Positions 20,206-49,425 of a stretch of 64,000 nucleotides of DNA are shown here, in pieces. The stretch lies in assembly GCF_003790525.1 (NCBI RefSeq), contig NZ_CP033635.1; one strand, given 5' to 3'. The translations under genes were made by a program, and so were the position numbers. The stretch comes from Escherichia coli. GTDB lineage: Bacteria > Pseudomonadota > Gammaproteobacteria > Enterobacterales > Enterobacteriaceae. Every line of letters starts with the position of its first letter. Positions within the stretch are counted from its first letter, which is position 1. Under the pieces are notes generated by a model. The model ran no database searches and was not told where the DNA came from. It saw nothing but the letters and a program-made list of their open reading frames with translations.

Positions 20206-20252
20206 TGGTGGCCCCTGCTGGACTTGAACCAGCGACCAAGCGATTATGAGTC
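20206..20252 (-). tRNA. ileX: 3'-terminal 47 nt of a tRNA-Ile (ileX-type) gene; truncated tRNA remnant serving as island att core
   Basis: tggtggcccctgctggacttgaaccagcgaccaagcgattatgagtc is the reverse complement of a tRNA 3' half (T-arm, acceptor stem, CCA); similarity to tRNA stops abruptly at 20253. Confidence 0.7.
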
Positions 20253-20448: not shown

Positions 20449-21765
20449 ATGGCCGTCAATCTTACTGAAACAGCCATCCGAGCATTGAAAGCAAAAAAGA
20501 CATCGTTCTATGTCTGGAGCAACAGCTCTCAACGTGGCACTGGACGACTTGGTGTCAAAGTTCAGCCTTCTGGCAGCAAGATTTTCTATTTCCGCTATTA
20601 CGTGGAAAAAGGGAAAAAAGAAAGATTCATTCAATTGGGTATATGGCCTGAGATGAAACTGGCCACAGCGAATGAACTGACAAAAAAGTATGGTGCCTGG
20701 CTCATTGAAGGAAAGGATCCCCAGGCAGAACTGGAACGACAACAGTTTGCAGAACAGCAGCGGATACAACTCCATCAATCACAGGGCTCATTTGAAGCAT
20801 TGATTCATGGTTATGTTAACAAAATGAAAATTGATAATAAGAGGACATGGCAGGATGTTCTGAAACGCCTTGAAAATGAATGCTATACAGTGATCCCCCG
20901 TGAAACTAAAGCTAAAGATGTGACTTCCGGACAGATTAAACATATCCTGGCCGGGATCATTCAGCGCGGTGCTGTGGTTCACTCTAACCGGATCCGTTCT
21001 TACCTGATGGCTGCATTTAACTATGGACTGAAAGCAGATAACGATCCGATGAACACAAGTGTAGGGATTACTTTTGGGCTGGAGGCAAATCCGGTGTCAG
21101 TGATACCGAAACAGTCATCTGCTGAAAAAGTCGGTGATACCTGGCTGACACTTGAAGAGTTGCGTTTTCTAATGGAACATTTTGCTGAAGCAACCAACGT
21201 TGGATTATTGATGCAACATTTGATCCGATTCTGTATCTATACCGGAGGGCAACGTCCTTTCGAAATGATCGCCAGTCAGTGGTGTGATGTTGATTTTCAA
21301 CAAAAAACGCTGCTGGTGACTGCTGATGTCTCTAAAAATAAACGAGAGCATTTGATACCGTTGACTGAATCAGCATTACAGGAATTATCCTGTGTGCAGG
21401 AGTTAACAAAAGAAAAATCCAGCCCTTACATTTTTCCACTTTCGACTAATGGTAAGCGTCCGGTTCGTACGGACAGTCTGGCTCGCGCTATCATGTATTT
21501 CCGGGCTTTTAATCCTGACTTTAAAATTTTTACAGCACGTGACTTACGTCGGACCTGTAAAACGTTAATGGGAGAAGCTGGGATCAGTAAGGAAATCCGC
21601 GATCGTATTCAAAATCATGCGTTGAACGATGTCAGTTCAAAACATTATGATCGATACGATTATTTGCCAGAAAAACGCAGAGCACTTGAGATCTGGGAGG
21701 ACCGGGTTAATAACTATCAACAGCAAACAGGCAATAATGTTGTCAATCTGTTTGGCAGAAGGTGA
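20449..21765 (+). CDS. P4-type tyrosine integrase
   Basis: 438-aa ORF; C-terminal catalytic region with R...HxxR...Y arrangement (ARDLRRTCKTLM, HALNDVSSKHYDRYDY); directly adjacent to the tRNA fragment. Confidence 0.9.
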   Translation: MAVNLTETAIRALKAKKTSFYVWSNSSQRGTGRLGVKVQPSGSKIFYFRYYVEKGKKERFIQLGIWPEMKLATANELTKKYGAWLIEGKDPQAELERQQFAEQQRIQLHQSQGSFEALIHGYVNKMKIDNKRTWQDVLKRLENECYTVIPRETKAKDVTSGQIKHILAGIIQRGAVVHSNRIRSYLMAAFNYGLKADNDPMNTSVGITFGLEANPVSVIPKQSSAEKVGDTWLTLEELRFLMEHFAEATNVGLLMQHLIRFCIYTGGQRPFEMIASQWCDVDFQQKTLLVTADVSKNKREHLIPLTESALQELSCVQELTKEKSSPYIFPLSTNGKRPVRTDSLARAIMYFRAFNPDFKIFTARDLRRTCKTLMGEAGISKEIRDRIQNHALNDVSSKHYDRYDYLPEKRRALEIWEDRVNNYQQQTGNNVVNLFGRR

Positions 21766-21894: not shown

Positions 21895-22491
21895 ATGGCT
21901 GTAATTCCAATGTCTTACTCCCCTGCTACTGTAGCTCGTCGTTTTTCGATACTGGATGGAGTAACTATTCAGGGCGTGCTTTACCAGATCATCTGGGATC
22001 CAAAGACTCCGTTTGCTGCGGTAATCGAAGCTGCACCTTCTGTTATTGATGGTGATGTTCGCCATAAGGTTGTTGCCACTCTGGAGCTTCAGCGTCGTCC
22101 CCGGCTTGAAGGCGTGTTTGTCCAGAAATTCTGGGAAGAACAGGATGTTGCTCAGATTGAAGGGATTGTTGTCGATGGCGCTGTACGTGATGTTGGTCTT
22201 GCAACGTTTGTTTATGAAACGATAGTCACAAAAGCGGGCGTTGTACTATTAAGTGATAACGAGCAATATGAAGGAGGTAAAGCTCTCTGGCAGCATATTG
22301 CGCGTCGTTCAACGAATCTGAAGGTGTTTATTTTAGATACTGATTCCGCACGGTATTACCCGTTTGATGGCGAACGGATCAGTTATGACGGGAAAAGCAT
22401 CCCGGAATCAGAAATCTGGAGTGAACATCCTGAGCGAAACAGACACGCTGTCGTTCTTGTGGCTGAATCTGTTAATGGTAAAGCCGCATAA
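21895..22491 (+). CDS. Hypothetical protein (198 aa), integrase-proximal cargo
   Basis: Track ORF 21865..22491; ATG at 21895 preceded by AGAGGGGA RBS. Weak resemblance to GNAT motif A (VVDGAVRDVGLATFVYE) is not conclusive. Confidence 0.4.
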   Translation: MAVIPMSYSPATVARRFSILDGVTIQGVLYQIIWDPKTPFAAVIEAAPSVIDGDVRHKVVATLELQRRPRLEGVFVQKFWEEQDVAQIEGIVVDGAVRDVGLATFVYETIVTKAGVVLLSDNEQYEGGKALWQHIARRSTNLKVFILDTDSARYYPFDGERISYDGKSIPESEIWSEHPERNRHAVVLVAESVNGKAA

Positions 22492-22538
22492 TTTGCTGAG
22501 TGTCTCATTTTTTGAGATCTTGCTGGAAAGTCTCCTTT

Positions 22539-22561
22539 GGGGATAGCGAACTGCTATCCCC
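22539..22561. terminator. Bidirectional hairpin between convergent cargo genes
   Basis: ggggatagc-gaact-gctatcccc perfect 9-bp inverted repeat between stops at 22491 (+) and 22574 (-). Confidence 0.45.
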
Positions 22562-22573
22562 TTTCTCAGTGAG

Positions 22574-24178
22574 TTACTGTTCGACCAGACATTTTCCCCA
22601 TAAAGGTCGTATCGAGTATCTATCTTCGCTATATGGATTTATTTTATTTTTTTCCCTCTGTGCTATCAGCAACGTGTCGATCTCATCCTTAATAATGTGT
22701 TGAACTGCTTGACGGTAACGGTTAAGCGAAGTGTCACTGATATCTTGTGGAAGTTGTAGACTGCCATCTGCCTTGACAAGTTCATTTACACCATCTTTAA
22801 TTCTGCGTCCCTGACCATCAGGTATACCTTCATTCAGATCATAGCCTTTTAGTCCTGCAAGACGAATATTCACGTCAATCTTTTCTGTACGTATCTTTTT
22901 GTTACTTACCAACAGAATTTTATTGGCGTTATACCATTTTTCAAATATTTCCAGTTGTTTCATGATGTTTGTGAAGTTATTCAGTTCGCTCCTGAATTCA
23001 ATAGATTTTCTAATTTTACGCTCTTTTGCATCAATGTTTATTCCTGGATAATTTATTTCCATTTTTAACGGTTCTGTGTATGCCTGTTGCAGGCAATCAG
23101 CAAGATTCATTGCTGCATCCTGCAGGGTATTGGTATAAATCAGTTTCAGAAGTTCATCACGCTGTATAGTGATTTGACAATAGTCTTTTTCCCATGCGGT
23201 GGTGTTTTCAATCGTGTCACTTTCATCGGAAATAATTGTTGTGAACTTCCAGGTGTAACGAATAAAATCATTTCCTTTAAAATATTGCACTAATTTATTT
23301 AACCATTCATATATTTCCAGAGCATAAAGTTTAACGTATCCATCATATATTATCTTTGTTGCATTTTTGTTGGCTAGCGAAAACATTTTGTCCACGAATT
23401 CTGTACGCCCGATTGTTAGCAATTGTTTTCTAAGTTTACTCACATCGTTAGTATCTGGTTTCTCACAATTCCAGGGACTTTTGTATTCATTTTCAAAAGG
23501 AGAAAGCCATTCAGGAATCTCTGTTTCTGAGTGATAGCAGTTGTTAATAGCCAAACCAAGGGTTCTGGCAAGTATCGCTGATTCATCAATTTGATGGTAT
23601 CGGTTCAGTTGTTCCAGTAATTCTTTAGTACATGAGTGCGCAACAGAAAGATCCTGATGGCAATATCCTTGTCGAACCAGAGCGGGAAGTGGTGAGCAAT
23701 GAGCTTTACAATCTGTCAGAATATTGAACAAATCGTTTCTGACGAATTCTTCCATCTCAGGTGTTTTCCAGCCACCACTATTTTGGCCGACAAATTTTGC
23801 TGTTGGTTCCCTGTTCATATCTCCCCAGGTTTTCAGGCTGACGAGTCTGTTATCAAAACCATTGTATAAATGGCACATAACCTGAAAAGCAGCATACAGA
23901 TCTTTAGATAGTGGATTATCGGTCTCACTTATGGAGTAGTTCTCTCTGTTTTTCTCTAAAATACTTTGGAGTTTTGTGTTAGCGCGTAATGCCGAGAGAA
24001 TCCGATGTTGTTCATCAAACCAAGGACGATATTCTGGATCCAGATACAATCTGCGTGCTTTGAAAATGAGTAGAAGCAACTGTTCGGAAACAGCTTCATG
24101 TATGTGGGGAAACGGCATGGAGGTGCCGGATAAAACACGATAGTACGGGTGGTTTGTTTTTACCTTTTTAGTTACCAT
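22574..24178 (-). CDS. Hypothetical 534-aa protein, low GC; candidate phage-defence or abortive-infection protein
   Basis: Long uninterrupted ORF in an AT-rich block between integrase and alpA; no motif I can assign confidently. Confidence 0.5.
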   Translation of the reverse strand: MVTKKVKTNHPYYRVLSGTSMPFPHIHEAVSEQLLLLIFKARRLYLDPEYRPWFDEQHRILSALRANTKLQSILEKNRENYSISETDNPLSKDLYAAFQVMCHLYNGFDNRLVSLKTWGDMNREPTAKFVGQNSGGWKTPEMEEFVRNDLFNILTDCKAHCSPLPALVRQGYCHQDLSVAHSCTKELLEQLNRYHQIDESAILARTLGLAINNCYHSETEIPEWLSPFENEYKSPWNCEKPDTNDVSKLRKQLLTIGRTEFVDKMFSLANKNATKIIYDGYVKLYALEIYEWLNKLVQYFKGNDFIRYTWKFTTIISDESDTIENTTAWEKDYCQITIQRDELLKLIYTNTLQDAAMNLADCLQQAYTEPLKMEINYPGINIDAKERKIRKSIEFRSELNNFTNIMKQLEIFEKWYNANKILLVSNKKIRTEKIDVNIRLAGLKGYDLNEGIPDGQGRRIKDGVNELVKADGSLQLPQDISDTSLNRYRQAVQHIIKDEIDTLLIAQREKNKINPYSEDRYSIRPLWGKCLVEQ

Positions 24179-24957
24179 AATGTTAAATTCTTCCGTCTAT
24201 TGCATAGCTGTTTCCAGTAGAGAAACTTGATACAGTCCTTTGTCAGGACATTGATACAGAGTTAACAGCCTCTACGAAATGGGAATCAGTTATGCAGTGG
24301 CATTATACGATGCTGAATCTAATACGATATCCTTAGCGTTTATTCCTGATTTTTTTACGAGCATTCCCTTTTGTTGCATATTGCTCAGGACGCAAATGAT
24401 TTTACGGTTATAGCCCTCTACAGTCACGTCACTTTCATCTGAAAATATGTATCGTTTTCATTCAATTATTATCTTTTGTCTGCACTTTAGCTTTAGAAAG
24501 TTGGCAAAAATCAACTCCCTCTTACAAGTTCTATTATCGCCAGAAGATAATTTTGTGAACTTCGTCACGTTTTCAAACTAATGTTGTGGGGGCTTTTCTG
24601 GGGAGAATTTTTGGTCACTACCCCTCCTCTTGATATCATAGATTATAACAAGATTTTTTTTGTTTTTGTCTGCATAAAATAACCTACGAATATTGTGATT
24701 TTGATTTTTATTTTGTATACCAAAAAGCATTGTTTAAGTTATTTTTATATTGTGACTTTCTTTGTTGTTATTGTGTTATTAGAAGTCAGTTAATTAAATC
24801 ATTTCTCACAATTTGATTTCTTGGTTGTGCAAATGTATTGTTTTGCTCGTGAGTTGCTGGTGCTGTTCAACAGCATACCACTACAGATAGATGTAGTGAT
24901 TTGAGCAGCTCACATGCATATACAATCTGAAAATCATGAATATATAAGGAGAGCAAT

Positions 24958-25185
24958 ATGTGGAAGCCGTTAAGAGATGAGAACCGTTTATCAATTTTGA
25001 AGATCTATGGATACACCTGTGACAGACTGGTACGAGAAAAGGAACGCCAGAAAATTACGTCTATTTCTCGTTCACAAGCCTGGAAACTGGAACGTGAAGG
25101 AAAATTCCCGCCACGTAAAACTATTGGAAAGAAATCCTGTGGGTGGTTATTAAGTGATCTATTGTGGTGGATTAGTCAGTATTAA
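24958..25185 (+). CDS. alpA: AlpA-family phage regulatory protein / excisionase-like HTH
   Basis: 75-aa ORF; ISRSQAWKLEREGKFPPRKTIGKKSCGWLLSDLLWWI fits the AlpA/Xis-type HTH pattern; preceded by a ~780-bp AT-rich non-coding region. Confidence 0.65.
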   Translation: MWKPLRDENRLSILKIYGYTCDRLVREKERQKITSISRSQAWKLEREGKFPPRKTIGKKSCGWLLSDLLWWISQY

Positions 25186-25247: not shown

Positions 25248-25994
25248 ATGATGAAACGTGTCTCTTTCTCTCTTGCAGAAACATATGAAGCTGATGTAAT
25301 TAAAAAGTATCAGCATTTAAAAAAATGCTCATTTTCAGCAGCGATTAAAGAGTGTTTAAAGCTAGGGGCTCCTGTTTTAAACAGGATAAATGAAAATATT
25401 GCTGCTATAACTGATATAGAGGATAAGCTACGTCAGTTTTTTAATGAGGAACCATTTGTGCAACGGACAAAGCCTGAAATAACAAAAGGAGAGTTTTTTC
25501 ATAGCATTTATAAATCGCATATCAAATATGAATATGATGTTCTCGATAGAAAGATATTTCCTCATGAAAGCACCAGAAATGCTATGGGAGTTGCAGAGAA
25601 AAAGGGAATTAAAGAGAATGCGACCTTAATGCTGGAATATTATAAAGTTGAGAAGGCAATTTGTATTTACACGAACAGAAAAGTTTCCCATACCCTGAAT
25701 CGTGCAGGAGGGTTTTATAAAACCATTCTGATTAAAACCAGTGTTTTTGGGGATTATTTTTTTGACTTTTGCAATTCAGTTTGCCTGCCGATAGATGAGT
25801 TGATTGAGTATGGTACGAAAGAAACAGTGAGGCGACATCAGATTCGTAGTACAGGATTTTGTACTTTTCATATTCCGATTTTTTATATCAATAATAAGGC
25901 TGTAATAGTGCCTGTTCTGAGAACAGAGGAAGTTTCACAAAGTTCCAGAACAGGTGGAGATGTTATTATTATTAACCCATTTGAAGATGAATGA
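25248..25994 (+). CDS. Hypothetical protein with N-terminal ribbon-helix-helix-like segment
   Basis: 248-aa ORF; N-terminus MKRVSFSLAETYEADVIKKYQHL resembles a CopG/RHH beta-alpha-alpha pattern; remainder unassigned. Confidence 0.4.
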   Translation: MMKRVSFSLAETYEADVIKKYQHLKKCSFSAAIKECLKLGAPVLNRINENIAAITDIEDKLRQFFNEEPFVQRTKPEITKGEFFHSIYKSHIKYEYDVLDRKIFPHESTRNAMGVAEKKGIKENATLMLEYYKVEKAICIYTNRKVSHTLNRAGGFYKTILIKTSVFGDYFFDFCNSVCLPIDELIEYGTKETVRRHQIRSTGFCTFHIPIFYINNKAVIVPVLRTEEVSQSSRTGGDVIIINPFEDE

Positions 25995-26215: not shown

Positions 26216-26776
26216 ATGGCGAGTTTTGCATACATAGACTCTGAAAAATGGTCAAAACTTAATCGCTTAAAATCCATGATTCAGAGATATTTTAAAGAAC
26301 CACTATTGCAGTTAACAGGCGAATTGGGTCGCCCGGATTATACTCTGGCAGACAGAAAACGGTTAGTTCGACTCCTGACGCAGGATATGCAAAGGGGTGA
26401 TATTCTGATTACTAAATCGTTAACTTGTTTTGGTAATACGCCGGAAAAAATACAGGAGGTTTTATCTTTAAGTATCAGACAAGGTATTAATATTTGCTTT
26501 TTTACGTCATCAGAGTTGCCGGATGGTGATGATATTCCTGTGGTACTCACCGGGATGATTTTACCTACAGATATTAGAGGAAAAATTCCCGACATCAGTA
26601 TCCGGAAAATTAAAAGAAAACCAGGAAGGAAAGAAGGGAGTATTCATAGTAAAAATATCAGACAGTTGAAATTGCAGGGGTTCAGTCAGTCACAAACAGC
26701 CAGAAAATTAAGCATCAGTTTATCCACTGTAAAAAGACACTGGGATAAAGGTATTGTTGATCTAACTGCAGAGTAA
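26216..26776 (+). CDS. Serine-recombinase (resolvase/invertase)-derived protein with C-terminal HTH; catalytic motifs degenerate (YagL-like)
   Basis: 186-aa ORF; RGDILITKSLTCFGNT aligns with resolvase GDTLVVxKLDRLGRS but lacks the RVS serine motif and DRLGR arginine; C-terminal QSQTARKLSISLSTVKRHW HTH. Confidence 0.5.
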   Translation: MASFAYIDSEKWSKLNRLKSMIQRYFKEPLLQLTGELGRPDYTLADRKRLVRLLTQDMQRGDILITKSLTCFGNTPEKIQEVLSLSIRQGINICFFTSSELPDGDDIPVVLTGMILPTDIRGKIPDISIRKIKRKPGRKEGSIHSKNIRQLKLQGFSQSQTARKLSISLSTVKRHWDKGIVDLTAE

Positions 26777-27157: not shown

Positions 27158-27772
27158 ATGATTACGATTGAAACTCTTTACGGTGAATGTCATGAGGCTC
27201 ACGGGTTAAAAATAAGAAACCAGGTGAATAACCTCTTCCAGAAACATCCCAGAATAACGGCAATACGGGTGGATCTCCATTATCCTCCCGTGATTGACAA
27301 CGGGGATACCATTACCTGTTTTCCTAACCTGAGTCCCGGAGAGATATCTCGTTTCCGTAACTCGCTGAATGCGAAAATTAATGCAGATCAACACCGTAAA
27401 AAACAACAAGGCAAACGCACCTACGCAACGTCGGTTTGTATTATCTGGGCGAAAGAATATACGCAGTCCTTTAAATGTCATTATCACGTCTGCCTTTTTT
27501 TTAACAAAGACGCCTATTACCACCTGGGAGACTATGAGCGCTCTGACACCCTGAGAGGGTTAATTACCGGAGCCTGGTACAGTGCCTTAGGGTTAGAACT
27601 GGAAGATCACCAGGGACTAGTTCATTTCCCTGCTAATGGACGTTACATCCTGGATATTAACGATCCTGATTTCCCTGAGCAATATCAGCGCTTATTGGCA
27701 CGTCTGGATTATCTGACGAAGCTCGACACTAAAGCATCAGGCCAGCGTAACTTTGGCTACAGCGGTTTTTGA
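27158..27772 (+). CDS. Inovirus Gp2-like / YagK-YfjJ family protein with HUH motif
   Basis: 204-aa ORF; HYHVCLFF (HUH-like) and conserved HPRITAIRVDLHYP block typical of the YagK/YfjJ prophage family. Confidence 0.5.
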   Translation: MITIETLYGECHEAHGLKIRNQVNNLFQKHPRITAIRVDLHYPPVIDNGDTITCFPNLSPGEISRFRNSLNAKINADQHRKKQQGKRTYATSVCIIWAKEYTQSFKCHYHVCLFFNKDAYYHLGDYERSDTLRGLITGAWYSALGLELEDHQGLVHFPANGRYILDINDPDFPEQYQRLLARLDYLTKLDTKASGQRNFGYSGF

Positions 27773-27799: not shown

Positions 27800-28366
27800 A
27801 TGTATACAGAATCAAACGTTAAGCTTTCCTGTAACGCCCTCTGGCAAAAGTATGTCCTTGCAACTCTGTATCGGGCTGCAGCTACACATCCTAAAATTAA
27901 ATTATTACAATTTAAATTAATACCTTGCCCAGGTATGAACAAGGCAATTCCCTCTCTGATGGCTGATTTTACTGGTGAACTGCATAGACTAATTTCTGAA
28001 TATTTGCAGTGCAAGCGACGTAAAGATAAATCTGTTGAGCCCGCCCCTTTATATTATCTCTGGAGTAGGGAAGCTGTGGCTAACGATACCACTCCTTATC
28101 TTATGGTACTGCTACTTAATAACGATGTCTGGTGTAAGAGTCGTGAGGTGGTGGCTCTCAGAAATCTGATTGAGCAGGCGTGGGGAAAAGTATTGGACGA
28201 AGATAACTCCATTACACATCAGGTTGTGTATCCTGAAGTGCTGTCGTTGGTATTTGATGCAGCTAACACATACAACGCTGAGCCTGGTGTACTGGAACAG
28301 ACGGCCCAGGCTTACATTGAATCGCATGGTGCCATTGAACGTCATCTTGGGTGTAGTGACTTTTAA
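27800..28366 (+). CDS. Paralogue of the upstream Gp2-like protein (HUH motif degenerate)
   Basis: 188-aa ORF; N-terminus HPKIKLLQFKLIPCP parallels HPRITAIRVDLHYPP of the neighbour; the HYHV position reads PYLMV. Confidence 0.4.
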   Translation: MYTESNVKLSCNALWQKYVLATLYRAAATHPKIKLLQFKLIPCPGMNKAIPSLMADFTGELHRLISEYLQCKRRKDKSVEPAPLYYLWSREAVANDTTPYLMVLLLNNDVWCKSREVVALRNLIEQAWGKVLDEDNSITHQVVYPEVLSLVFDAANTYNAEPGVLEQTAQAYIESHGAIERHLGCSDF

Positions 28367-29984: not shown

Positions 29985-30995
29985 ATGTCACTCAAGGCTA
30001 TCGCCGCCGAACTCGGGATCTCTGTCACCACAGTCAGCCGGGCGCTTGGCGGATTTTCGGACGTTTCCGCTTCGACCCGTGCACGTGTAGAAGCGGAAGC
30101 TCGGCGTCGTGGTTATCGCCCGAATACCCTGGCAAGACGTCTCAAAACCGGTAAAACCGATGCGGTCGGCCTGGTCTTCCCTGAACATGCTGTACTGTTC
30201 AGCAGTAGTGTGTTTGTGGATATGGTCAGTTGTATCAGCCGGGAACTGGTCCGCCATGATATTGACTTACTGCTGATAGCCGATGATGAACGGGCTGACA
30301 GCCACAGCTATATGCGTCTGGTCGAAAGCCGCCGGGTTGATGCCCTTATCGTGGCGCACACGATGGATAATGACCCGCGTCTTACACACCTGCAGGAGGC
30401 CGGTATTCCGTTTCTGGCACTCGGTCAGGTGCCGTCCGGTCTTCCCTGTGCCTGGTTTGACTTTGATAACCATGCAGGAACCTGGCAGGCCACACAGCAC
30501 CTGATTGCCCTGGGCCATCAGCGAATTGCCCTGCTGAGTGAGGACAACTCCCGTGCCTATGTCACTGCACGACGTCAGGGATGGCGCGATGCCCTGAGTG
30601 AACATGGTCTGCCTGAGACCTGGCTACGCCGGGTCTCTCCCACCCGACGCTCAGGTTTCCAGGCAGTGACTGAGTTAATGTCACTTCCGCTTCCCCCGAC
30701 GGCCATTATTACCGACAGTGACCTGATCGGTGATGGCGCGGCCATGTCGCTGCAGTTATCCGGTCATCTGTCCGGAGAGGATGCCGTCTCTCTTGTGGTT
30801 TATGATGGTCTGCCGCAGGACAGTATTATTGAACAGGATGTGGCTGCAGTTCTTCAGTCAACACGACATCGCGTCGGTCGTCAGATTGCCGACATGATAC
30901 GCCAGCTGGTCACGAATGTTTCACCTGAAATGCTACAAGTACTCTGGCAGCCGGAATTTCATCCTGGCAAGACAACGCTTGCTCCCTCCGCCTGA
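29985..30995 (+). CDS. rafR: LacI-family repressor, RafR-like
   Basis: 336-aa ORF; N-terminal HTH MSLKAIAAELGISVTTVSRAL; immediately upstream of the alpha-galactosidase gene. Confidence 0.65.
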   Translation: MSLKAIAAELGISVTTVSRALGGFSDVSASTRARVEAEARRRGYRPNTLARRLKTGKTDAVGLVFPEHAVLFSSSVFVDMVSCISRELVRHDIDLLLIADDERADSHSYMRLVESRRVDALIVAHTMDNDPRLTHLQEAGIPFLALGQVPSGLPCAWFDFDNHAGTWQATQHLIALGHQRIALLSEDNSRAYVTARRQGWRDALSEHGLPETWLRRVSPTRRSGFQAVTELMSLPLPPTAIITDSDLIGDGAAMSLQLSGHLSGEDAVSLVVYDGLPQDSIIEQDVAAVLQSTRHRVGRQIADMIRQLVTNVSPEMLQVLWQPEFHPGKTTLAPSA

Positions 30996-31088
30996 TTTTT
31001 AATCCCGCTCACAAATTCGAATCGTTTCGGTTGCTATCCGAAACGATTCGGATCAACAGTAAGGCATACCCGAAAACGGAGATGTCTT

Positions 31089-33215
31089 ATGGAACCGATG
31101 TACCGCAGGCTGACCAGTCCCCACTCAGACCTGATTATTAAAACCCACCCGTATGCAGAGATTGTCTGGTGGGGATCCACCCTGAAACACTTTTCACCGG
31201 ATGACTGTATCAGCCTGGAAAGGCCGGTTGCGAATGGTCGTCTGGATACCGACACCCCACTGACGCTGATGGCCGAAAACGGCGCGGGACTTTTTGGCTC
31301 GCCGGGGCTGGAGGGACACCGCAACGGGCTGGATGCGTCCCCTGTGTTCCGTACCATCAGCGTGGTACAGGCCGGAGAATCACTCACCCTGACCAGTGAG
31401 GATGCAGTGGCGGGTCTGCGCATGGTCAGTGAACTGGTGCTGACATCGTCCGGTGTGCTGAAGATGCGTCATGCCCTGACGAACCTCCGTGAAGGGGACT
31501 GGCAGGTGAACCGCTTCGCCATCACGCTCCCTGTGGCTGAAAGGGCAGAGGAAGTCATGGCCTTCCACGGACGCTGGACTCGTGAGTTTCAGCCGCACAG
31601 GGTCCGTCTCACACATGACGGTTTTGTGCTGGAGAACCGCCGGGGCCGCACGTCCCATGAGCATTTTCCGGCACTGATTGCCGGTGCCCCCGGTTTCTCA
31701 GAACAGCAGGGCGAGGTGTGGGCCGTACATCTGGGCTGGAGTGGCAACCATCGCATGAAATGTGAGGTCAAAACTGACGGACGGCGTTACCTCCAGGCGG
31801 AAGCACTGTGGATGCCCGGAGAAAAAGCCCTGAAGAAGGATGAGACCGTGTACACGCCGTGGCTGTACGCCAGCTATTCCCCGGAGGGGCTCAATGGTAT
31901 GAGTCAGCAGTACCACCGTTTTCTGCGCGATGAAATCATCCGTTTTCCTGAGCAGAAACCCCGTCCGGTGCACCTCAATACCTGGGAAGGTATTTATTTT
32001 GACCACGACCCGAACTACATCATGCAGATGGCCGGACGTGCGGCAGCGCTTGGCGTTGAACGTTTCATTATCGACGACGGCTGGTTTAAGGGACGCAATG
32101 ATGACCATGCGGCTCTGGGCGACTGGTATCTGGATGAACAGAAGTATCCGGACGGACTGATGCCGGTGATTAACCATGTGAAATCACTCGGCATGGAGTT
32201 CGGTATCTGGGTGGAACCGGAAATGATTAACCCGGACTCTGACCTCTTTCGCCGCCATCCTGACTGGGTACTGTCAATGCCGGGGTACACACAACCAACC
32301 GGGAGACATCAGTATGTTCTCAACCTGAACATTCCTGAGGCCTTTGCTTACATTTATGAACGCTGTTTATGGCTGCTGGGCGAACACCCAGTTGACTATG
32401 TGAAATGGGACATGAACCGCGAGCTGGTCCAGGCCGGGCATGAAGGTCGGGCGGCGGCGGACGCGCAGACCCGTCAGTTTTACCGGCTGCTGGATCTCCT
32501 GCGCGAACGTTTTCCCCGTGTTGAGTTTGAGTCCTGCGCTTCCGGCGGTGGACGTATCGACTTTGAGGTTCTGACCCGCACGCACCGCTTCTGGGCTTCT
32601 GACAACAATGACGCCCTGGAGCGCTGCACCATACAGCGTGGCATGAGTTACTTTTTCCCGCCGGAGGTTATGGGGGCACACATCGGTCATCATCGCTGCC
32701 ATGCCACCTTCCGGCAGCACAGCATTGCCTTTCGCGGTCTGACGGCCCTGTTCGGTCATATGGGACTGGAGCTGGATCCGGTAACGGCCGGAGAAGAGGA
32801 ATCCGCCGGTTACCGCCGCTATGCCTCGCTCTACAAAGAATGGCGGCAGCTTATCCACACGGGCACCCTATGGCGGGTGGATATGCCGGATGCGGCGACA
32901 CAGGTGCAGGGGGTGGTCAGCCCGGATCAGTCGCAGGCGCTCTTCCTGGTGAGCCAGCTTGCCATGCCGGATCACACCCTGCCGGGTGCTCTACGTTTTC
33001 CGGGGCTGGCACCACAGGCCCGTTACCGGCTTCGTGTTGTTGACCATCCGGATATTCAGCTGGTCGGTGAAGGCGGGCATACCATGCGCAGGCTGCCCGG
33101 CTGGATGAACCAGACCTCCGACATCAGTGGGGAATGGCTGGCGCAGGCCGGTATTCAGCTTCCCGTACTGGATCCGGAAAGCGCCATGCTGATTGCCCTT
33201 GAACGTTTGGCATAA
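31089..33215 (+). CDS. rafA: Alpha-galactosidase RafA (GH36)
   Basis: 708-aa ORF; GH36 motifs (DDGWF, KWDMN, CASGGGR). Confidence 0.8.
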   Translation: MEPMYRRLTSPHSDLIIKTHPYAEIVWWGSTLKHFSPDDCISLERPVANGRLDTDTPLTLMAENGAGLFGSPGLEGHRNGLDASPVFRTISVVQAGESLTLTSEDAVAGLRMVSELVLTSSGVLKMRHALTNLREGDWQVNRFAITLPVAERAEEVMAFHGRWTREFQPHRVRLTHDGFVLENRRGRTSHEHFPALIAGAPGFSEQQGEVWAVHLGWSGNHRMKCEVKTDGRRYLQAEALWMPGEKALKKDETVYTPWLYASYSPEGLNGMSQQYHRFLRDEIIRFPEQKPRPVHLNTWEGIYFDHDPNYIMQMAGRAAALGVERFIIDDGWFKGRNDDHAALGDWYLDEQKYPDGLMPVINHVKSLGMEFGIWVEPEMINPDSDLFRRHPDWVLSMPGYTQPTGRHQYVLNLNIPEAFAYIYERCLWLLGEHPVDYVKWDMNRELVQAGHEGRAAADAQTRQFYRLLDLLRERFPRVEFESCASGGGRIDFEVLTRTHRFWASDNNDALERCTIQRGMSYFFPPEVMGAHIGHHRCHATFRQHSIAFRGLTALFGHMGLELDPVTAGEEESAGYRRYASLYKEWRQLIHTGTLWRVDMPDAATQVQGVVSPDQSQALFLVSQLAMPDHTLPGALRFPGLAPQARYRLRVVDHPDIQLVGEGGHTMRRLPGWMNQTSDISGEWLAQAGIQLPVLDPESAMLIALERLA

Positions 33216-33269
33216 AAGGACCGGAGCCGGTCACGGCTCCCTGCACTCAGTCCCGTGAGGATAACAATA

Positions 33270-34547
33270 ATGAATACTGTCAGTACTCATAAAAACCCCG
33301 ATTTCTGGATATTTGGTCTGTTCTTTTTTCTCTACTTTTTCATCATGGCAACCTGTTTCCCGTTTCTGCCCGTCTGGCTGTCAGACATTGTGGGGCTGAG
33401 TAAAACGGATACCGGGATTGTTTTTTCATGCCTCTCCCTGTTTGCCATCAGCTTCCAGCCGCTGCTGGGGGTCATCTCAGACCGTCTTGGCCTGAAAAAA
33501 CACCTGATGTGGATCATCAGCCTGCTGCTGGTCCTGTTTGCACCGTTCTTTCTGTACGTTTTTGCGCCGCTGCTGCGGTTCAACATCTGGGCCGGAGCAC
33601 TGAGCGGCGGGATTTTTATCGGCTTCGTTTTTTCTGCGGGAGCCGGTGCCATCGAAGCCTATATTGAACGTGTCAGCCGCAGCAGCGGATTTGAATACGG
33701 TAAGGCCCGGATGTTCGGCTGTCTGGGCTGGGCGCTGTGTGCCACCACGGCAGGGCTGCTTTTCAACGTGGATCCGTCCCTGGTATTCTGGATGGGGTCC
33801 GGCTGCGCATTGCTGCTGGTCCTTCTGGTGGCGCTGGCGCGTCCCGGAACCAGTCAGACAGCGATGGTCATGAATGCGCTGGGTGCCAACTCGCCCGTGA
33901 TTTCCGCCGGAATGGTGTTCAGTCTGTTTCGTATGCGTCAGATGTGGATGTTCGTGCTTTACATGATTGGGGTGGCCTGCGTCTATGACGTGTTTGACCA
34001 GCAGTTTGCCACGTTCTTCCGTGCATTTTTTGACACGCCGCAGGCGGGGATCCGGGCATTTGGTTTTGCCACCACGGCTGGCGAGATTTGCAATGCCATC
34101 ATCATGTTCTGCTCCCCCTGGATAATCAACCGCATTGGTGCCAAAAACACACTGCTTGTCGCGGGTCTGATTATGACCATCCGCATCACAGGGTCGGCCT
34201 TTGCCACCACGGCTACTGAAGTGGTGATCCTGAAAATGCTGCATGCCCTTGAAGTCCCATTCCTGCTGGTTGGTGCGTTCAAGTATATCACCGGCGTGTT
34301 TGATACCCGGCTGTCGGCCACCATTTATCTGATTGGCTTTCAGTTCTCCAAACAACTGGCGGCGATATTCCTCTCAACCTTTGCAGGTCACCTGTATGAC
34401 CGCATGGGGTTCCAGAACACCTATCTGGTTCTGGGCGGTATTGTCCTTGCGGTCACCGTGTTATCGGCTTTCACCCTGAGCAGTACCCGTAAAACGGCTG
34501 CCCCGTCAGCAGAAACCGCTACAGCACAGACGGAGGTTCGCTTATGA
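33270..34547 (+). CDS. rafB: Raffinose/oligosaccharide:H+ symporter RafB (LacY family, MFS)
   Basis: Track ORF from 33255 (GTG); ATG at 33270 with GAGGA RBS; 12-TM hydrophobic profile; LacY-like N-terminus (NPDFWIFGLFFFLYFFIM). Confidence 0.8.
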   Translation: MNTVSTHKNPDFWIFGLFFFLYFFIMATCFPFLPVWLSDIVGLSKTDTGIVFSCLSLFAISFQPLLGVISDRLGLKKHLMWIISLLLVLFAPFFLYVFAPLLRFNIWAGALSGGIFIGFVFSAGAGAIEAYIERVSRSSGFEYGKARMFGCLGWALCATTAGLLFNVDPSLVFWMGSGCALLLVLLVALARPGTSQTAMVMNALGANSPVISAGMVFSLFRMRQMWMFVLYMIGVACVYDVFDQQFATFFRAFFDTPQAGIRAFGFATTAGEICNAIIMFCSPWIINRIGAKNTLLVAGLIMTIRITGSAFATTATEVVILKMLHALEVPFLLVGAFKYITGVFDTRLSATIYLIGFQFSKQLAAIFLSTFAGHLYDRMGFQNTYLVLGGIVLAVTVLSAFTLSSTRKTAAPSAETATAQTEVRL

Positions 34548-35974
34548 AACAGCGTCTTGTCTCTGCACAGGTTGCACTTGATACACTCCGCGCCCGTCGT
34601 GGTGATACCTGGTACCCGGTTTTTCATCTGGCTCCACCTGCCGGATGGATGAATGATCCGAACGGGCTTATTTATTTCAGCGGTCGCTATCACGCATTCT
34701 TTCAGCACCATCCGGCAAGTGAACATCAGGGGCCGATGCACTGGGGACATGCCACCAGTCCGGACATGCTGCACTGGCAGCATGAGCCGGTTGCGCTGGC
34801 ACCCGGTGATGAATATGACCGGGATGGCTGTTTTTCCGGCAGCGCAGTGGACGACAACGGCGTGCTGTCGCTTATCTACACCGGTCATCTCTGTCTGGAG
34901 GATCGGGGGGATGACAGCATCATCCGCGAAGTCCAGTGTCTGGCAACCAGCCGTGACGGCATTCACTTTGAGAAACAGGGCTGCGTGCTGACGCCACCGG
35001 AAGGCATCATGCATTTCCGTGACCCGAAGGTCTGGCGGGAAGGGGGATACTGGTGGATGGTTATCGGCGCGCGGGATACCTCTGACACCGGTCAGGTGCT
35101 GCTGTATCGCGGCACATCCCTGCGGGACTGGCGCCAGGAACGGGTTCTAGCGCAGTCGGCAGCCGGAGAAAGCTATATGTGGGAATGTCCGGACTTTTTC
35201 CGCTGTGGCGACCATCACTGGCTGATGTTCTCCCCGCAGGGGATGACGCCCGGCGGATACCGGTTCCGCAACCGCTTTCAGAGCGGAGTTTTACCGGGTC
35301 ACTGGCAGCCGGGGGCCGCCTTTGCCCTGAGCGGGGCATTTGAAGAACTGGATCACGGTCATGATTTTTATGCCCCGCAGTCCCTGGTCGCGGAGGACGG
35401 ACGGCGCATCATCATGGCCTGGATGAATATGTGGGACTCCCCGATGCCTACAAAGCGTGAGGCCTGGGCCGGATGTCTGACCCTGCCGAGGGAACTTTTT
35501 GAACGCCATGGTCGTCTGTGTCAGCGTCCGGTTCGCGAAGCCGAATCCCTTCGCGGGACGTGCCAGCCGTTACACCCTGTAAGGCTCAGTGGCACGCAGT
35601 TGCTGGCTGAGGACGCACAGGCCGTGGAACTGGTGCTGACGTGGCATACCCTCGACAGTCAGGCAGAGCATTACGGCATCCACCTGGGAGACGGGCTCCG
35701 GCTGTATGTGGATAACCAGGCAGGACGGCTGGTGCTTTGGCGTCACTACCCGGATGAGGGGCTGGACGGTTACCGCAGTATCGCGCTGCCTGGCGCAGAA
35801 TATCTGACGCTACGGGTTTTCCTGGACCGTTCATCGGTGGAAGTGTTCGTTAACGATGGCGATGCCACCCTGTCCAGCCGTATTTACCCGCAGCCCGGAA
35901 CCCGCCGGTTGTCGCTATATGCAGCTCACGGCGAGGCTGTGCTGACGGACGGCTCACTGTGGACGCTGGCCTGA
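34544..35974 (+). CDS. rafD: GH32 sucrose/raffinose hydrolase (invertase), RafD-like
   Basis: 476-aa ORF; GH32 N-terminal WMNDPNG motif plus RDP and EC motifs; 4-bp overlap with rafB stop. Confidence 0.75.
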   Translation: MKQRLVSAQVALDTLRARRGDTWYPVFHLAPPAGWMNDPNGLIYFSGRYHAFFQHHPASEHQGPMHWGHATSPDMLHWQHEPVALAPGDEYDRDGCFSGSAVDDNGVLSLIYTGHLCLEDRGDDSIIREVQCLATSRDGIHFEKQGCVLTPPEGIMHFRDPKVWREGGYWWMVIGARDTSDTGQVLLYRGTSLRDWRQERVLAQSAAGESYMWECPDFFRCGDHHWLMFSPQGMTPGGYRFRNRFQSGVLPGHWQPGAAFALSGAFEELDHGHDFYAPQSLVAEDGRRIIMAWMNMWDSPMPTKREAWAGCLTLPRELFERHGRLCQRPVREAESLRGTCQPLHPVRLSGTQLLAEDAQAVELVLTWHTLDSQAEHYGIHLGDGLRLYVDNQAGRLVLWRHYPDEGLDGYRSIALPGAEYLTLRVFLDRSSVEVFVNDGDATLSSRIYPQPGTRRLSLYAAHGEAVLTDGSLWTLA

Positions 35975-36037
35975 AATAATTCCACTGCCGTCGGTGACGG
36001 CAGTACTTTCGGTTCACCCGTAATGAAGGAAAGCACA

Positions 36038-36553
36038 ATGGGATTACTGGGCAGGATTAAACAACTGATAAGTGAAAATGAGAAACCGGCGGAAGTCACC
36101 CGCGTGATGGCACCGCTGTCCGGTGAAATTGTCCCTCTGGACACGGTTCCGGATGCTGTGTTTGCCGGGAAAATAGTGGGGGATGGTATTGCTATCCGTC
36201 CTTCCGGCGGCGATACCTTGATGGCTCCTGTCAGCGGCACTATCGGTAAAATACTGGAGACAAACCACGCGTTTTCCATCCGCACCGACAGTGGCACTGA
36301 ACTGTTCGTGCACTTCGGTATTAACACAGTTGACCTCAGGGGAGAGGGTTTCCGGCGTATTGCCCAGGAAGGCCAGCTGATCAGCACCGGTGACCCCGTC
36401 ATCGGGTTTGACCTTGCGTTACTTCAGCAGAAAGCACAGTCCACGCTGACACCGGTGATTGTGGCGGACTCTGACCGTGTCCAGGAGATAACCCTGTTCT
36501 CCGGCCCGGTCATCGCCGGAGAAACACCGGTTTTTGATATCAGCAGCCAGTAA
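36038..36553 (+). CDS. PTS EIIA-Glc (Crr)-like protein, island-encoded paralogue
   Basis: Track ORF 36023..36553; from MGLLGRIKQL the sequence parallels Crr (GDGIAIRPSGG, HAFSIRTDSGTELFVHFGINTV with the two His positions). Confidence 0.7.
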   Translation: MGLLGRIKQLISENEKPAEVTRVMAPLSGEIVPLDTVPDAVFAGKIVGDGIAIRPSGGDTLMAPVSGTIGKILETNHAFSIRTDSGTELFVHFGINTVDLRGEGFRRIAQEGQLISTGDPVIGFDLALLQQKAQSTLTPVIVADSDRVQEITLFSGPVIAGETPVFDISSQ

Positions 36554-36558
36554 GCGCC

Positions 36559-37135
36559 ATGAGTGACAATATCGCCAGCGGGCAGCTGGTATCAGGGAAA
36601 GCCGCACATCTGGCCTGGTGCGGGCTGGTAGCCCTGCATCTGGCCCGCCGGGATGGCCGGATTGCGTCAAAAATCCAGGAAAACCTGTTTCTAAACCGCT
36701 GGCGGAGCACAGCACTGAAACAGCACCGTTTTCCCCGCACATATCAGAGCCCTGCAGAGTGAAAGCGGGGCGAAAGATATCCGCAGCAGGCTGGAGTATC
36801 TGTGGCAGGCCTGCTCTGGTGATGTGTCGGTACAGACTGACCTGTTCCGCCTGACATTCGCCCTGGAAACCATCAGGGAGCAGGGCTGGTGCTGGCGGAT
36901 ACTGAGCGACCGGAAATGGGAGGGGCGTAATGTCGTGGTTCCGAACGGGGATGCCGGCAGCTTTTATCTTTCCCGCTCACGTCTTGAGGCGGCATTTGAT
37001 TATCAGGGGAGGTTGCTGCATCCCCTGACCGGCGATGTGTCTGCCCTCGCTGCCCTGCTCCGGAATGCGGGTTGGTATCCAATTCCAGCCGGAACCACGG
37101 ATATGGCGATGTTTGAGCTGTCTGTCATCCGCTGA
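36559..37135 (+). pseudogene. Possible frameshifted gene remnant of unknown function
   Basis: Three successive overlapping + strand ORFs in three frames (36559..36762, 36618..36854, 36824..37135) in a GC-rich stretch between the crr-like gene and the fructokinase gene. Confidence 0.2.
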
Positions 37136-37164
37136 ATATGACTGATGAAAATCATGGAGTATGA

Positions 37165-38091
37165 ATGAGTACAGTAAAAGTATGGGGTCTCGGTGATGCC
37201 GTGGTGGATTTATTACCGGAGAAGCCGGGCACGCTGTTGCAGTGCCCTGGTGGTGCGCCTGCCAATGTTGCCGTGGGCGTGGCCCGACTGGGGGGCCTGA
37301 GCGGGTTTGTCGGGTGTGTGGGGGATGACCCTTTCGGGCGTTTTATGCGCAAAACCCTGGCTGATGAGGGTGTGGACACGGCGTATATGCATACCGACCC
37401 TCTGTACCGGACTTCCACAGTGGTGGTGTCGCTGGTGCCGGGTGGTGAACGAACCTTCACATTTATGGTGCGCCCTTCGGCAGACCTTTTCCTTACCCCT
37501 GATGATTTACCGCCCTTTCGTGCCGGTGAATGGCTGCATACCTGCTCCAATGCCCTGAGTGCAGAGCCCTGCCGCAGCGCCACGTTTCAGGCCATGGAGA
37601 ACATCCGGCAGGCTGGCGGCAGGGTCAGCTTTGACCCCAACATCCGGACTGACCTGTGGCAGAGCACATCGCAACTGCGTGAGTGTCTGCACCGGGCGCT
37701 CATGCTGGCGGATGTGGCAAAGGTATCGGAAGAGGAACTGTTCTTTATCAGCGGTGAACAGGATGTCCGGAAGGGAACCGATGTTCTGGCATCACATTAT
37801 CCCCTGGCACTGCTGCTGGTAACCCAAGGAAAGGATGGCGTGATGGCTCGCTGGCAGGGAAAAAACCTGTACTTCCCGGCAACACCGGTGGTGAGTGTGG
37901 ACACGACCGGTGCCGGTGACGCCTTCGTGGCAGGTCTGCTGGCAGCGCTGGCGGCAGAGGGGATGCCCTCCGGTGAGCAGGCACTCGCATCCGTCATCGA
38001 ACAGGCCCAGCGCTGTGGTGCGCTTGCCACGACAGCAAAAGGTGCCATGACAGCGTTACCCCGTCGCCAGGATTTACTGAAACACCCCTGA
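37165..38091 (+). CDS. scrK: Fructokinase (PfkB family), ScrK/CscK-like
   Basis: 308-aa ORF; PfkB signatures (GGAPANVAV; DTTGAGDAF). Confidence 0.8.
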   Translation: MSTVKVWGLGDAVVDLLPEKPGTLLQCPGGAPANVAVGVARLGGLSGFVGCVGDDPFGRFMRKTLADEGVDTAYMHTDPLYRTSTVVVSLVPGGERTFTFMVRPSADLFLTPDDLPPFRAGEWLHTCSNALSAEPCRSATFQAMENIRQAGGRVSFDPNIRTDLWQSTSQLRECLHRALMLADVAKVSEEELFFISGEQDVRKGTDVLASHYPLALLLVTQGKDGVMARWQGKNLYFPATPVVSVDTTGAGDAFVAGLLAALAAEGMPSGEQALASVIEQAQRCGALATTAKGAMTALPRRQDLLKHP

Positions 38092-38139
38092 CCGTTTCCT
38101 GCCCGTAACCGTTGTGCACGTCATTTTTGTTGCGGGTGA

Positions 38140-39687
<1,548 letters not shown>

Positions 39688-41511: not shown

Positions 41512-44269
<2,758 letters not shown>

Positions 44270-44497
44270 TCTTAAATGACTCTGAGGTGTCTGTTAAACC
44301 TGTGGCGATTCAGTCTATTAAACCTGTGGCGATTCACTTTATGGTGTCATAAACTTAAATCTAGCGCCGGGTAGAACAAGTTAATCGAACGATGTAGCGG
44401 CCATTTAGGCGTTACAGAAAGAACAGAATTTTAAATTTATAGTGAAGCCGTTGCAGCAACTTTGTGGGGTGCAACCAACACTGAACAGGAAAAGAAA

Positions 44498-46921: not shown

Positions 46922-46927
46922 GTCGTT

Positions 46928-48238
46928 ATGATGAAGATTTCTGAAATGCCGAAATATGACGATTATGTAGATTCTGGGGTTGAATGGTTGGGACGAGTAC
47001 CTGCTTCTTGGGAATTAACACGATTAGGCACTCGCTTTAATGAGCGTAGATCTAAAGTTTCAGACATTGACTACCCCGCACTCTCCGTAACAAAAAAAGG
47101 CGTTCTACCTCAATTAGATAATGCGGCCAAAACAAAAGATGGCGATAACAGAAAGCTAGTAAAAGAGGGTGACTTTGTTATAAATAGCCGCTCTGATCGG
47201 AAAGGTTCTAGTGGAGTATCTGACAGAGATGGATCAGTATCGCTTATAAATATAGTGCTTAAACCAAAAGGGATTCATCCAAAGTTTTCTGAGCATCTTT
47301 TGAAAAGTCATGCATTTATTGAGGAATACTATCGTGTTGGACGTGGAATTGTCGCAGATTTGTGGACTACTCGATACGATGAAATGCGGACGATTACTAT
47401 ATCTGTTCCTTCACTAGAAGAGCAAACCCGTATCGCCAACTTCCTAGACAAGAAAACCGCTCTAATCGACGAAGCGATTTCGATCAAAGAAAAGCAAATT
47501 AATCTGTTAAAAGAACATAAGCAGATCATCATCCAACAGGCGGTGACCCAAGGGCTTGATCCCAATGTGCCAATGAAAGACTCCGGTGTGGATTGGATTG
47601 GAGATATTCCAGAGCATTGGGAAGTTGTGCCTCTAAAAAGGTTGGCGGTCTTGAGCCCTTCTGTGAAAGTTTCAAATAGAAAGTCCAAAGAATTAGTTAC
47701 TTTCTTAGCGATGGAAAAGGTTTCAACAGATGGATTTATTGATCAAGATACATTAATGCCTATATGTGATGTGAGCCAAGGTTTTACGGTTTTTAACCGG
47801 GGGGATGTGATTGTTGCAAAAATTACACCTTGCTTTGAAAATGGGAAATCTGCTTGGCTTAACAATCTTCAAACTGAGTTTGGATACGGCTCAACCGAGT
47901 TTCACGTTTTAAGATGTGGTCAGAGAATTATAGGAAGTTTTCTCTACTTAATCGTTAGTTCGCCCCTTTTTCTTAATGCCGGTGAGGCTATGATGACTGG
48001 TTCAGCTGGTCAGAAGCGCGTGCCTAGTTCATTTATCCAAAACTTTCCTACCGCAATTCCCGGAGTTGCAGAGCAAGAAAAAATAGTATCAAAGGTAAAA
48101 GAGCTGTTTTCACAGATTGATGTTGTTGTGGCTTCTACGGTAAATCAAATCGAAAAGCTCAAAGAATACAAAACCACCCTGATCAACAGCGCCGTGACAG
48201 GAAAAATAAAAATCACCCCAGAAATGGTTGAGCAATAG
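46928..48238 (+). CDS. hsdS: Type I R-M specificity subunit HsdS (two target-recognition domains)
   Basis: 436-aa ORF 6 bp after hsdM; duplicated architecture with conserved central and C-terminal repeat regions. Confidence 0.8.
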   Translation: MMKISEMPKYDDYVDSGVEWLGRVPASWELTRLGTRFNERRSKVSDIDYPALSVTKKGVLPQLDNAAKTKDGDNRKLVKEGDFVINSRSDRKGSSGVSDRDGSVSLINIVLKPKGIHPKFSEHLLKSHAFIEEYYRVGRGIVADLWTTRYDEMRTITISVPSLEEQTRIANFLDKKTALIDEAISIKEKQINLLKEHKQIIIQQAVTQGLDPNVPMKDSGVDWIGDIPEHWEVVPLKRLAVLSPSVKVSNRKSKELVTFLAMEKVSTDGFIDQDTLMPICDVSQGFTVFNRGDVIVAKITPCFENGKSAWLNNLQTEFGYGSTEFHVLRCGQRIIGSFLYLIVSSPLFLNAGEAMMTGSAGQKRVPSSFIQNFPTAIPGVAEQEKIVSKVKELFSQIDVVVASTVNQIEKLKEYKTTLINSAVTGKIKITPEMVEQ

Positions 48239-48247
48239 GAAGCGAAT

Positions 48248-49411: not shown

Positions 49412-49425
49412 GGGAATTTACAATT

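Follow-up and report, generated by a model that had tools for sequence, protein, structure and literature searches.

Two independently inherited genes between the integrase and alpA genes of an Escherichia coli tRNA-Ile island, one of them a candidate anti-phage protein of an orphan family

Two genes, coding for hypothetical proteins of 198 and 534 amino acids (ORF198 and ORF534, where ORF stands for open reading frame), lie between the P4-type tyrosine integrase gene and the alpA-like gene of a genomic island in Escherichia coli. They were analysed in a stretch of 64,000 nucleotides of contig NZ_CP033635.1 (RefSeq assembly GCF_003790525.1), referred to as the window. Comparison of alleles and relatives shows them to be, on the evidence of their sequences, two independently inherited accessory genes and not one two-gene unit. 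The protein family of ORF534 is very small, evolves fast, is mostly alpha-helical and is confined to Enterobacterales and Vibrio. Our reading, which is tentative and put at somewhat less than an even chance, is that ORF534 functions in conflict, most probably as an anti-phage protein of the abortive-infection type, inherited independently of ORF198, a protein of the GNAT fold.

ORF198 and ORF534 are convergent and are located tail to tail around a perfect hairpin (Table 1), with exactly the coordinates given in a preliminary description of this DNA, which presented the two genes as a pair and as candidate undescribed defence cargo. Both indeed belong to the accessory genome, are uncharacterised and lie near the integrase gene at one end of an integrative island. 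That they act as one unit is not borne out: there is a recombination breakpoint between them, ORF198 occurs alone in phage-plasmids and relatives of ORF534 occur without ORF198. When the window is compared with strain STEC346, the integrase gene and ORF198 are 97–100% identical at the nucleotide level up to about position 22400, after which identity falls to 58–73% in ORF534, about 42% in the intergenic region and 73% in alpA. The sharp breakpoint at about 22400–22490 separates ORF198 from ORF534, and the drop in identity means that the same ORF198 allele (99% identical) has been combined with ORF534 alleles that are only 58–60% identical in protein. In general, E. coli ORF534 alleles share 57–60% amino-acid identity.

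The ORF198-ORF534 region is present in about 650–695 of 5426 complete E. coli genomes, roughly one in eight, and both genes are intact in all alleles examined. The ratio of non-synonymous to synonymous substitution rates (dN/dS) is 0.03–0.21 for ORF198 and 0.24–0.50 for ORF534. The integrase of the island is found in 438 of the 5426 genomes. A query extending from the integrase gene to alpA detects 258 genomes with the window-type allele, while about 170–179 further genomes contain the integrase gene and ORF198 followed by a diverged ORF534 allele; therefore, essentially all islands with this integrase (about 428–437 of 438) have ORF198 and an ORF534 allele. About 240 more genomes contain the ORF198-ORF534-alpA block without this integrase. 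In one example the block is on the proA side of a different site; in another, strain F8, it adjoins P22-like injection genes, a gene for a PerC-family regulator and a pair of genes for Panacea-domain proteins, an arrangement that indicates a rearrangement or a composite element.

The slot between the integrase gene and alpA is therefore constant in content and highly diverse in its alleles, and is not a swapping hotspot in this island family. The preliminary description had called this interval a recognised hotspot for anti-phage systems. The documented hotspot of P4 satellites lies elsewhere, between int and psu-delta-sid (bioRxiv 10.64898/2026.02.27.708500), and psu, delta and sid are all absent from the RefSeq annotation of a near-identical island, so that the region does not qualify as a P4-like cargo hotspot; the downstream ORFs match AlpA, helix-turn-helix and Gp2/YfjJ-like families only. 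The same description had named constant presence regardless of cargo as one half of what would speak against its proposal, and it is this constancy that the genome counts reveal.

That ORF198 and ORF534 nevertheless form one two-gene defence system, in which ORF534 would be the sensor and the GNAT protein a modifier or effector, is improbable. In all E. coli contexts examined (four allele combinations, at least two chromosomal sites) the genes are neighbours and converge, and they occur together in about 650 genomes; as the ORF534 family has variable small partners elsewhere, a clade-specific partner is conceivable. Against such a system stand the breakpoint between the genes, the pairing of a 99%-identical ORF198 allele with ORF534 alleles of only 58% identity and the presence of ORF198 by itself in P1-like phage-plasmids. 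Outside E. coli, ORF198 was never found beside an ORF534 relative in the contexts inspected (Klebsiella, Serratia, Enterobacter, Vibrio and plasmids). The partners found there are upstream and divergent, whereas ORF198 is downstream and convergent.

The hairpin between the two genes has a 9-base-pair stem and a loop of five nucleotides, with a folding energy of -21 kcal/mol and z-scores against shuffled sequences of -3.8 for the plus strand and -4.1 for the minus strand. Its stem is preserved in two diverged alleles (L011 and that of strain F8, L012) by a single compensatory change from G-C to A-T. It is probably a transcript-end structure; its weak T tract is the reason why it was not called in a terminator scan. 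ORF534 is located in markedly AT-rich DNA, as described earlier, with a G+C content of 38.3% compared to 53.4% for the adjacent core genes. The AT-rich non-coding stretch of about 780 base pairs that was said to follow ORF534 is also present (779 base pairs, 33.9% G+C), although it is situated 5' of the gene, on its alpA side. This interval contains no conserved ORF and no Rfam match, and neither a hidden partner gene nor a hidden RNA was found in it. It cannot be aligned between island alleles, and promoter-like sites in the region upstream of ORF534 do not exceed the number expected from shuffled sequences. It is presumed to be a promoter and regulatory region shared by ORF534 and alpA.

ORF198 has the alpha/beta fold of the GNAT proteins. 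Its motif A, R98-D-V-G101-L-A103, aligns with the Q/R-x-x-G-x-G/A acetyl-CoA pyrophosphate loop; in the family alignment G101 is invariant and R98 nearly so, and the homologue from a Ralstonia phage has K-L-S-G-L-G. Matches to curated GNAT profiles are not significant (E = 0.16 with Pfam Acetyltransf_1, and 0.094 for the best family member), there is no match in NCBIfam or PADLOC, and the protein is assigned to PHROG 7522. It thus differs from GNAT acetyltransferases such as HAT1, ESCO1, NatD and the toxin AtaT in falling below the Pfam and NCBIfam thresholds. From these features, ORF198 is taken to be a divergent GNAT-fold protein and putative N-acetyltransferase, strongly constrained and part of a conserved integrase block.

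Homologues of ORF198 with 87% identity are present, without ORF534, in the P1-like phage-plasmids SJ46 and RCS47. These full-length copies are located between bplB and the repL region, which is the pmgF slot of P1. P1 PmgF, annotated with a putative morphogenetic function, aligns to residues 4–66 of ORF198 only. Between ORF198 and the SJ46 copy, dN is 0.07 with synonymous sites saturated, and the protein must therefore be under strong constraint. Toxins of the AtaRT and TacAT type were considered as an identity for ORF198 and rejected, as there is no co-transcribed small ribbon-helix-helix/DUF1778 antitoxin gene directly upstream: the 129 base pairs between the integrase stop codon and the ORF198 start codon contain no ORF, and bplB takes the upstream position in SJ46 and RCS47.

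For ORF534, no match is found in Pfam, NCBIfam, PHROGs or PADLOC, and a search of the PDB sequences with the family profile yielded no relative. A word-indexed search of 5.8 billion proteins retrieved 20 clusters, all from Enterobacterales where the source is named, while a search of 1.84 billion representatives with a hidden Markov model gave 42 matches, about 15 of them full length. The weakest of the latter (P0178, E = 9e-4) is a repeat-rich protein that aligns piecemeal and looks spurious. The structure model of ORF534 is a confident one, has a predicted local distance difference test score of 78.9 and a predicted template-modelling score of 0.80, and is mostly alpha-helical with two small beta elements. 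Foldseek comparison of the model with AFDB50 returns family members and two remote relatives only, mostly uncharacterised and with no credible functional name. The names "tRNA-dihydrouridine synthase" and "propionate kinase/acetate kinase" (entries A0ABC7ZZ27, A0A085GKA2 and A0A376U8N3) are supported by no profile or fold result. Of the checks suggested in the preliminary description, the remote homology and structure comparisons thus placed ORF198 in the GNAT fold and gave no annotated match for ORF534, while PADLOC matched neither protein. The earlier statement that no motif can be assigned remains valid for ORF534, save for an invariant motif specific to its own family, and fails for ORF198. 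Literature searches with the RefSeq accessions of the two proteins returned nothing, and those on ileX islands and pmgF nothing relevant.

Seventeen members of the ORF534 family, with identities down to 18%, have eleven polar residues in common: E32, Q33, R42, D109, R169, Y172, H174, D447, S481, R487 and Q507. The sequence R169-x-G-Y-x-H174, invariant in all of them, is also conserved in a further, distant member (P0172). In the model it is located at the amino-terminus of a helix, and it formally satisfies the Rx4-6H signature of the HEPN RNases. Abortive-infection and toxin proteins with this motif include AbiD/F, AbiJ, AbiU2, AbiV and RnlA. Like them, ORF534 is mostly alpha-helical, with the invariant R-x4-H at a helix amino-terminus and further invariant acidic or polar residues, is encoded on mobile elements and has defence genes as neighbours in several contexts. 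Profile comparisons of ORF534 with a HEPN_LA2681 protein and with RnlA, performed with hhalign, gave no clear support for homology. R169-x4-H174 may form a HEPN-like RNase site with the cluster of E32, Q33 and D109.

Two proteins of E. coli K-12 invite comparison with ORF534. YfjL, now named AbpA, protects against phages, is encoded in the same type of island and has a comparable length. The preliminary description had given its length as 534 residues and suggested possible homology; it has 538 residues, and an identification of ORF534 with AbpA/YfjL is rejected by BLASTP (E = 0.31) and by hhalign (probability 0.13%). The AbpA system also includes the helicase AbpB, whereas no gene for an AbpB-like helicase adjoins ORF534. 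YfjH of CP4-57 occupies the same position between integrase and alpA genes, on the opposite strand, and is a positional analogue of ORF534; homology was rejected, as there is no sequence or profile similarity.

Outside E. coli, relatives of ORF534 are found in a variety of accessory regions, and comparison of these neighbourhoods shows the family, as far as gene order can tell, to move as a cassette among islands, elements resembling integrative and conjugative elements (ICE-like elements), P2-like and lambdoid prophages and IncFII plasmids. In a Klebsiella P2-like prophage, the relative is located between gpV and gpS, where it and its partner occupy exactly the slot of the non-essential P2 Orf30, one of the cargo positions of P2-like phages (with old, tin and fun/Z). 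P2 late-gene loci have been reported to hold defence systems. In one Klebsiella IncFII plasmid (L025), the relative is flanked by a DUF4145 protein and a Shedu nuclease, and a restriction endonuclease is close by; in another (L023), it is about 5 kb from a type II restriction-modification system, with two insertion sequences between them. In a metagenomic contig, the relative has a pPIWI_RE nuclease on one side and a HEPN_LA2681 protein on the other. The surroundings of a relative in an ICE-like region include a DNA methylase, a DUF4928 protein and an AAA_15/21 ATPase as well as ICE genes. The Enterobacter relatives are at the ends of lambdoid prophages, beside umuDC-like genes and a colicin gene, and a Vibrio relative is flanked by a P4-type integrase and AlpA, the element also encoding RepA_C and TrbL. 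The DNA of the family resembles cargo of P2-like and P4-like phages in being AT-rich, moron-like and exchanged between elements. Unlike cargo of the P2 and P4 hotspots, ORF534 of the window is a constant gene, situated between int and alpA of a tRNA-Ile island. Two parts of the proposal of undescribed cargo hold: ORF534 matches no known family, of defence or otherwise, and its relatives are in accessory or defence slots of many mobile elements. In this island family, the gene is not cargo that is swapped.

The Serratia copy (L018) is flanked by a gene for an FRG-domain protein with weak matches to the PADLOC candidate PDC-S15 and by a gene for a 1039-residue protein without Pfam domain; this region may be another small defence islet.

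These relatives are usually accompanied by small partner genes (Table 1), the large gene and the small one being divergent and about 340 base pairs apart. In members that are about 41% identical to ORF534, the partner is a very acidic protein of 136–150 residues with an isoelectric point of about 4.05. It is 63–85% identical across its contexts and forms a tiny family of 31 clusters, always divergently adjacent to a gene of the ORF534 family, in prophage, plasmid, ICE-like and chromosomal contexts of Klebsiella, Serratia, Enterobacter, Dickeya and Vibrio. Three more distant members have a glycine- and alanine-rich, glycine-zipper-like partner of about 100 residues upstream, with another small acidic protein beside it. 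The glycine-zipper partners are 77–83% identical, though the adjacent large proteins are just 26–38% identical, which suggests that they are a conserved small membrane partner of a rapidly diverging large protein.

The acidic partner bears on two other explanations of the family. In the first, the ORF534-family protein and its acidic partner would be a module of counter-defence or of competition between elements that aids establishment of the element, the acidic protein possibly being a DNA mimic. In its extreme acidity, the partner resembles DNA mimics of the Ocr and ArdA type. The isoelectric point of the partner, the fast evolution of the large protein and carriage by phages as well as by plasmids, ICE-like elements and islands are in agreement with such a role, which we consider not very likely: the IncFII copies are near repA and defence genes, outside the leading region, the prophage copies occupy moron slots typical of genes expressed in the lysogen, and the E. 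coli alleles wholly lack the acidic protein. There is also no similarity to known anti-defence families. In the second, the pair would be an addiction cassette resembling toxin-antitoxin systems, which only stabilises its element, with a large toxin, a small antidote and orphan or attenuated toxins in E. coli. We regard this as very improbable. The organisation as two genes, the small partner being acidic or a membrane protein, the patchy spread on mobile elements and the invariant putative catalytic residues would fit, but divergent genes about 340 base pairs apart are unlike co-transcribed type II toxin-antitoxin pairs, and the partnerless ORF534 of E. coli is intact and under purifying selection.

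A third possibility, that ORF534 serves the backbone or the regulation of the mobile element, for instance by binding DNA to regulate excision, transfer or silencing together with AlpA and the integrase, is unlikely. It would explain why ORF534 is constant beside this integrase and, in E. coli, always divergent from alpA over a long AT-rich region; the Vibrio relative is likewise situated between a P4-type integrase and AlpA, and one family member gives an AimR-like Pfam hint (E = 0.1). However, there is no integrase or alpA gene near the relatives in the P2 late-gene slot, at the lambdoid prophage ends or in the accessory regions of IncFII plasmids, and amino-acid divergence to the level of 57–60% at one locus in one species would be unusual when the partner integrase is 97% identical.

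A conflict function for ORF534 is made most likely by its patchy range, its AT-rich DNA, the many accessory slots and defence neighbours of the family, and a fast-evolving core combined with exchangeable partners. Such a combination is the usual pattern of conflict systems. In a recent test, eight unknown loci were chosen at random from P4 defence hotspots, and six of them conferred protection against phages. Several results weigh on the other side. ORF534 is a constant feature of the E. coli island type and not swapped cargo, which also fits a backbone or regulatory role; tblastn searches of the window with the acidic, glycine-zipper and other small partners found nothing, and the E. coli alleles have neither partner; PADLOC-DB 2.0 contains nothing for ORF534, ORF198, P0015, P0019, P0156 or the acidic partner; and the contexts of the family inspected by eye number only about 15.

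On the conflict reading, the role of sensor, of effector or of both would fall to the variable large protein, and the invariant R169-x4-H174, with E32, Q33 and D109, could be a HEPN-like RNase site. Outside E. coli, the activity of the large protein would be coupled to, or restrained by, the small divergent acidic or glycine-zipper partner. In the E. coli alleles, the partner would have been lost or never have been present, with the gene divergent from alpA across a long AT-rich and probably regulatory region. Defence proper, with a possible HEPN-like catalytic site, is thought possible as the function of ORF534, at a little below even chances. The broader proposal, that the RxGYxH proteins of about 540 residues are a previously undescribed anti-phage family with a new, mostly alpha-helical fold, possibly a cryptic HEPN-like nuclease site, and exchangeable partners or none, is more doubtful.

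The island follows the chromosomal genes aer, nfeR (yqjI) and nfeF (yqjH). A partial copy of the tRNA-Ile gene ileX, identified by an exact 20-mer and flanking similarity to the tRNA-Ile of strain W2-5, marks what is, from this match, the integrase-side attachment-site end of the island. In W2-5, the closest complete genome, the full tRNA-Ile gene adjoins mug at the far island end. ARAGORN detects no complete tRNA in the window, because the window stops short of the full tRNA-Ile gene (just past 64000). With the partial copy at the integrase end and the full copy beyond the window, the length of the island exceeds 44 kb and its integration site is tRNA-Ile (ileX). The match between strain W2-5 and the window ends at about 29.8 kb and resumes at about 54.9 kb; the stretch with the sugar utilisation cluster is different.

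This cluster, of the raffinose/sucrose type, and the group II intron reverse transcriptase/maturase gene that follows it are contained in 29985–39687 and 42333–43691. The cluster encodes a LacI-family regulator, an oligosaccharide permease of the major facilitator superfamily, an enzyme of the sucrose-6-phosphate hydrolase family, a fructokinase and a LamB-like porin. What can be recognised in this island as defence cargo is a type I restriction-modification system with an embedded gene matching the PADLOC candidate PDC-S11 (44462–52443).

Table 1. Features of the window and of related loci. Related loci are given by their labels (L003 to L033).
Feature	Location	Strand	Remarks
Partial tRNA-Ile (ileX)	20206-20252	-	3' half, 47 nucleotides
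P4-type tyrosine integrase	20449-21765	+	438 residues; NCBIfam integrase-domain match; RefSeq: tyrosine recombinase
ORF198	21895-22491	+	RefSeq hypothetical protein WP_000268404.1
Hairpin	22539-22561		GGGGATAGC-GAACT-GCTATCCCC
ORF534	22574-24178	-	RefSeq hypothetical protein WP_000256688.1
Non-coding AT-rich interval	24179-24957		Between the divergent ORF534 and alpA-like genes
AlpA-family excisionase/regulator	24958-25185	+	75 residues; PHROG 2790, E = 3e-22; RefSeq: helix-turn-helix or AlpA-family regulator
248-residue protein	25248-25994		3' of alpA; no family match
186-residue protein	26216-26776		3' of alpA; carboxy-terminal helix-turn-helix is the sole assignable part
Gp2/YfjJ-like, first of two tandem genes	27158-27772		PHROG 25019
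Gp2/YfjJ-like, second of two tandem genes	27800-28366		PHROG 25019; also matches PHROG 32179
hsdM	44462-46921		Type I restriction-modification
hsdS	46928-48238		Type I restriction-modification
PDC-S11 candidate	48248-49411		PADLOC match, E = 4.5e-182; between hsdS and hsdR
hsdR	49426-52443		Type I restriction-modification
ORF198 homologue, phage SJ46	L003 5965-6597		
ORF198 homologue, phage RCS47	L004 6001-6597		
ORF198-ORF534-alpA block, strain F8	L012 5560-8476		
Acidic partner	L005 7225-7662		
Acidic partner	L018 7205-7651		Serratia
Acidic partner	L022 7200-7652		
Acidic partner	L025 3023-3472		Klebsiella IncFII plasmid
Acidic partner	L028 7001-7411		
Acidic partner	L030 7001-7450		
Glycine-zipper partner	L009 7344-7667		
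Glycine-zipper partner	L010 2274-2588		
Glycine-zipper partner	L033 1261-1560		
Flanking gene, Serratia copy	L018 5437-6807		
Flanking gene, Serratia copy	L018 9944-13063		

ORF534 is a legitimate undescribed candidate that merits cloning, one of many such candidates that exist. It is carried by about one eighth of complete E. coli genomes, and its relatives are found on clinically relevant Klebsiella IncFII plasmids and prophages. The GNAT-fold ORF198, highly constrained and shared with P1-like phage-plasmids, provides a second testable gene and accounts for P1 PmgF as a match to the amino-terminal part of its family only. If ORF534 does act in immunity or conflict, the defence repertoire would gain a new protein family whose partners are modular, and the integrase-proximal slot of CP4-57-type islands would be seen to accommodate a gene of this kind as a fixture whose alleles diversify, instead of as swapped cargo.

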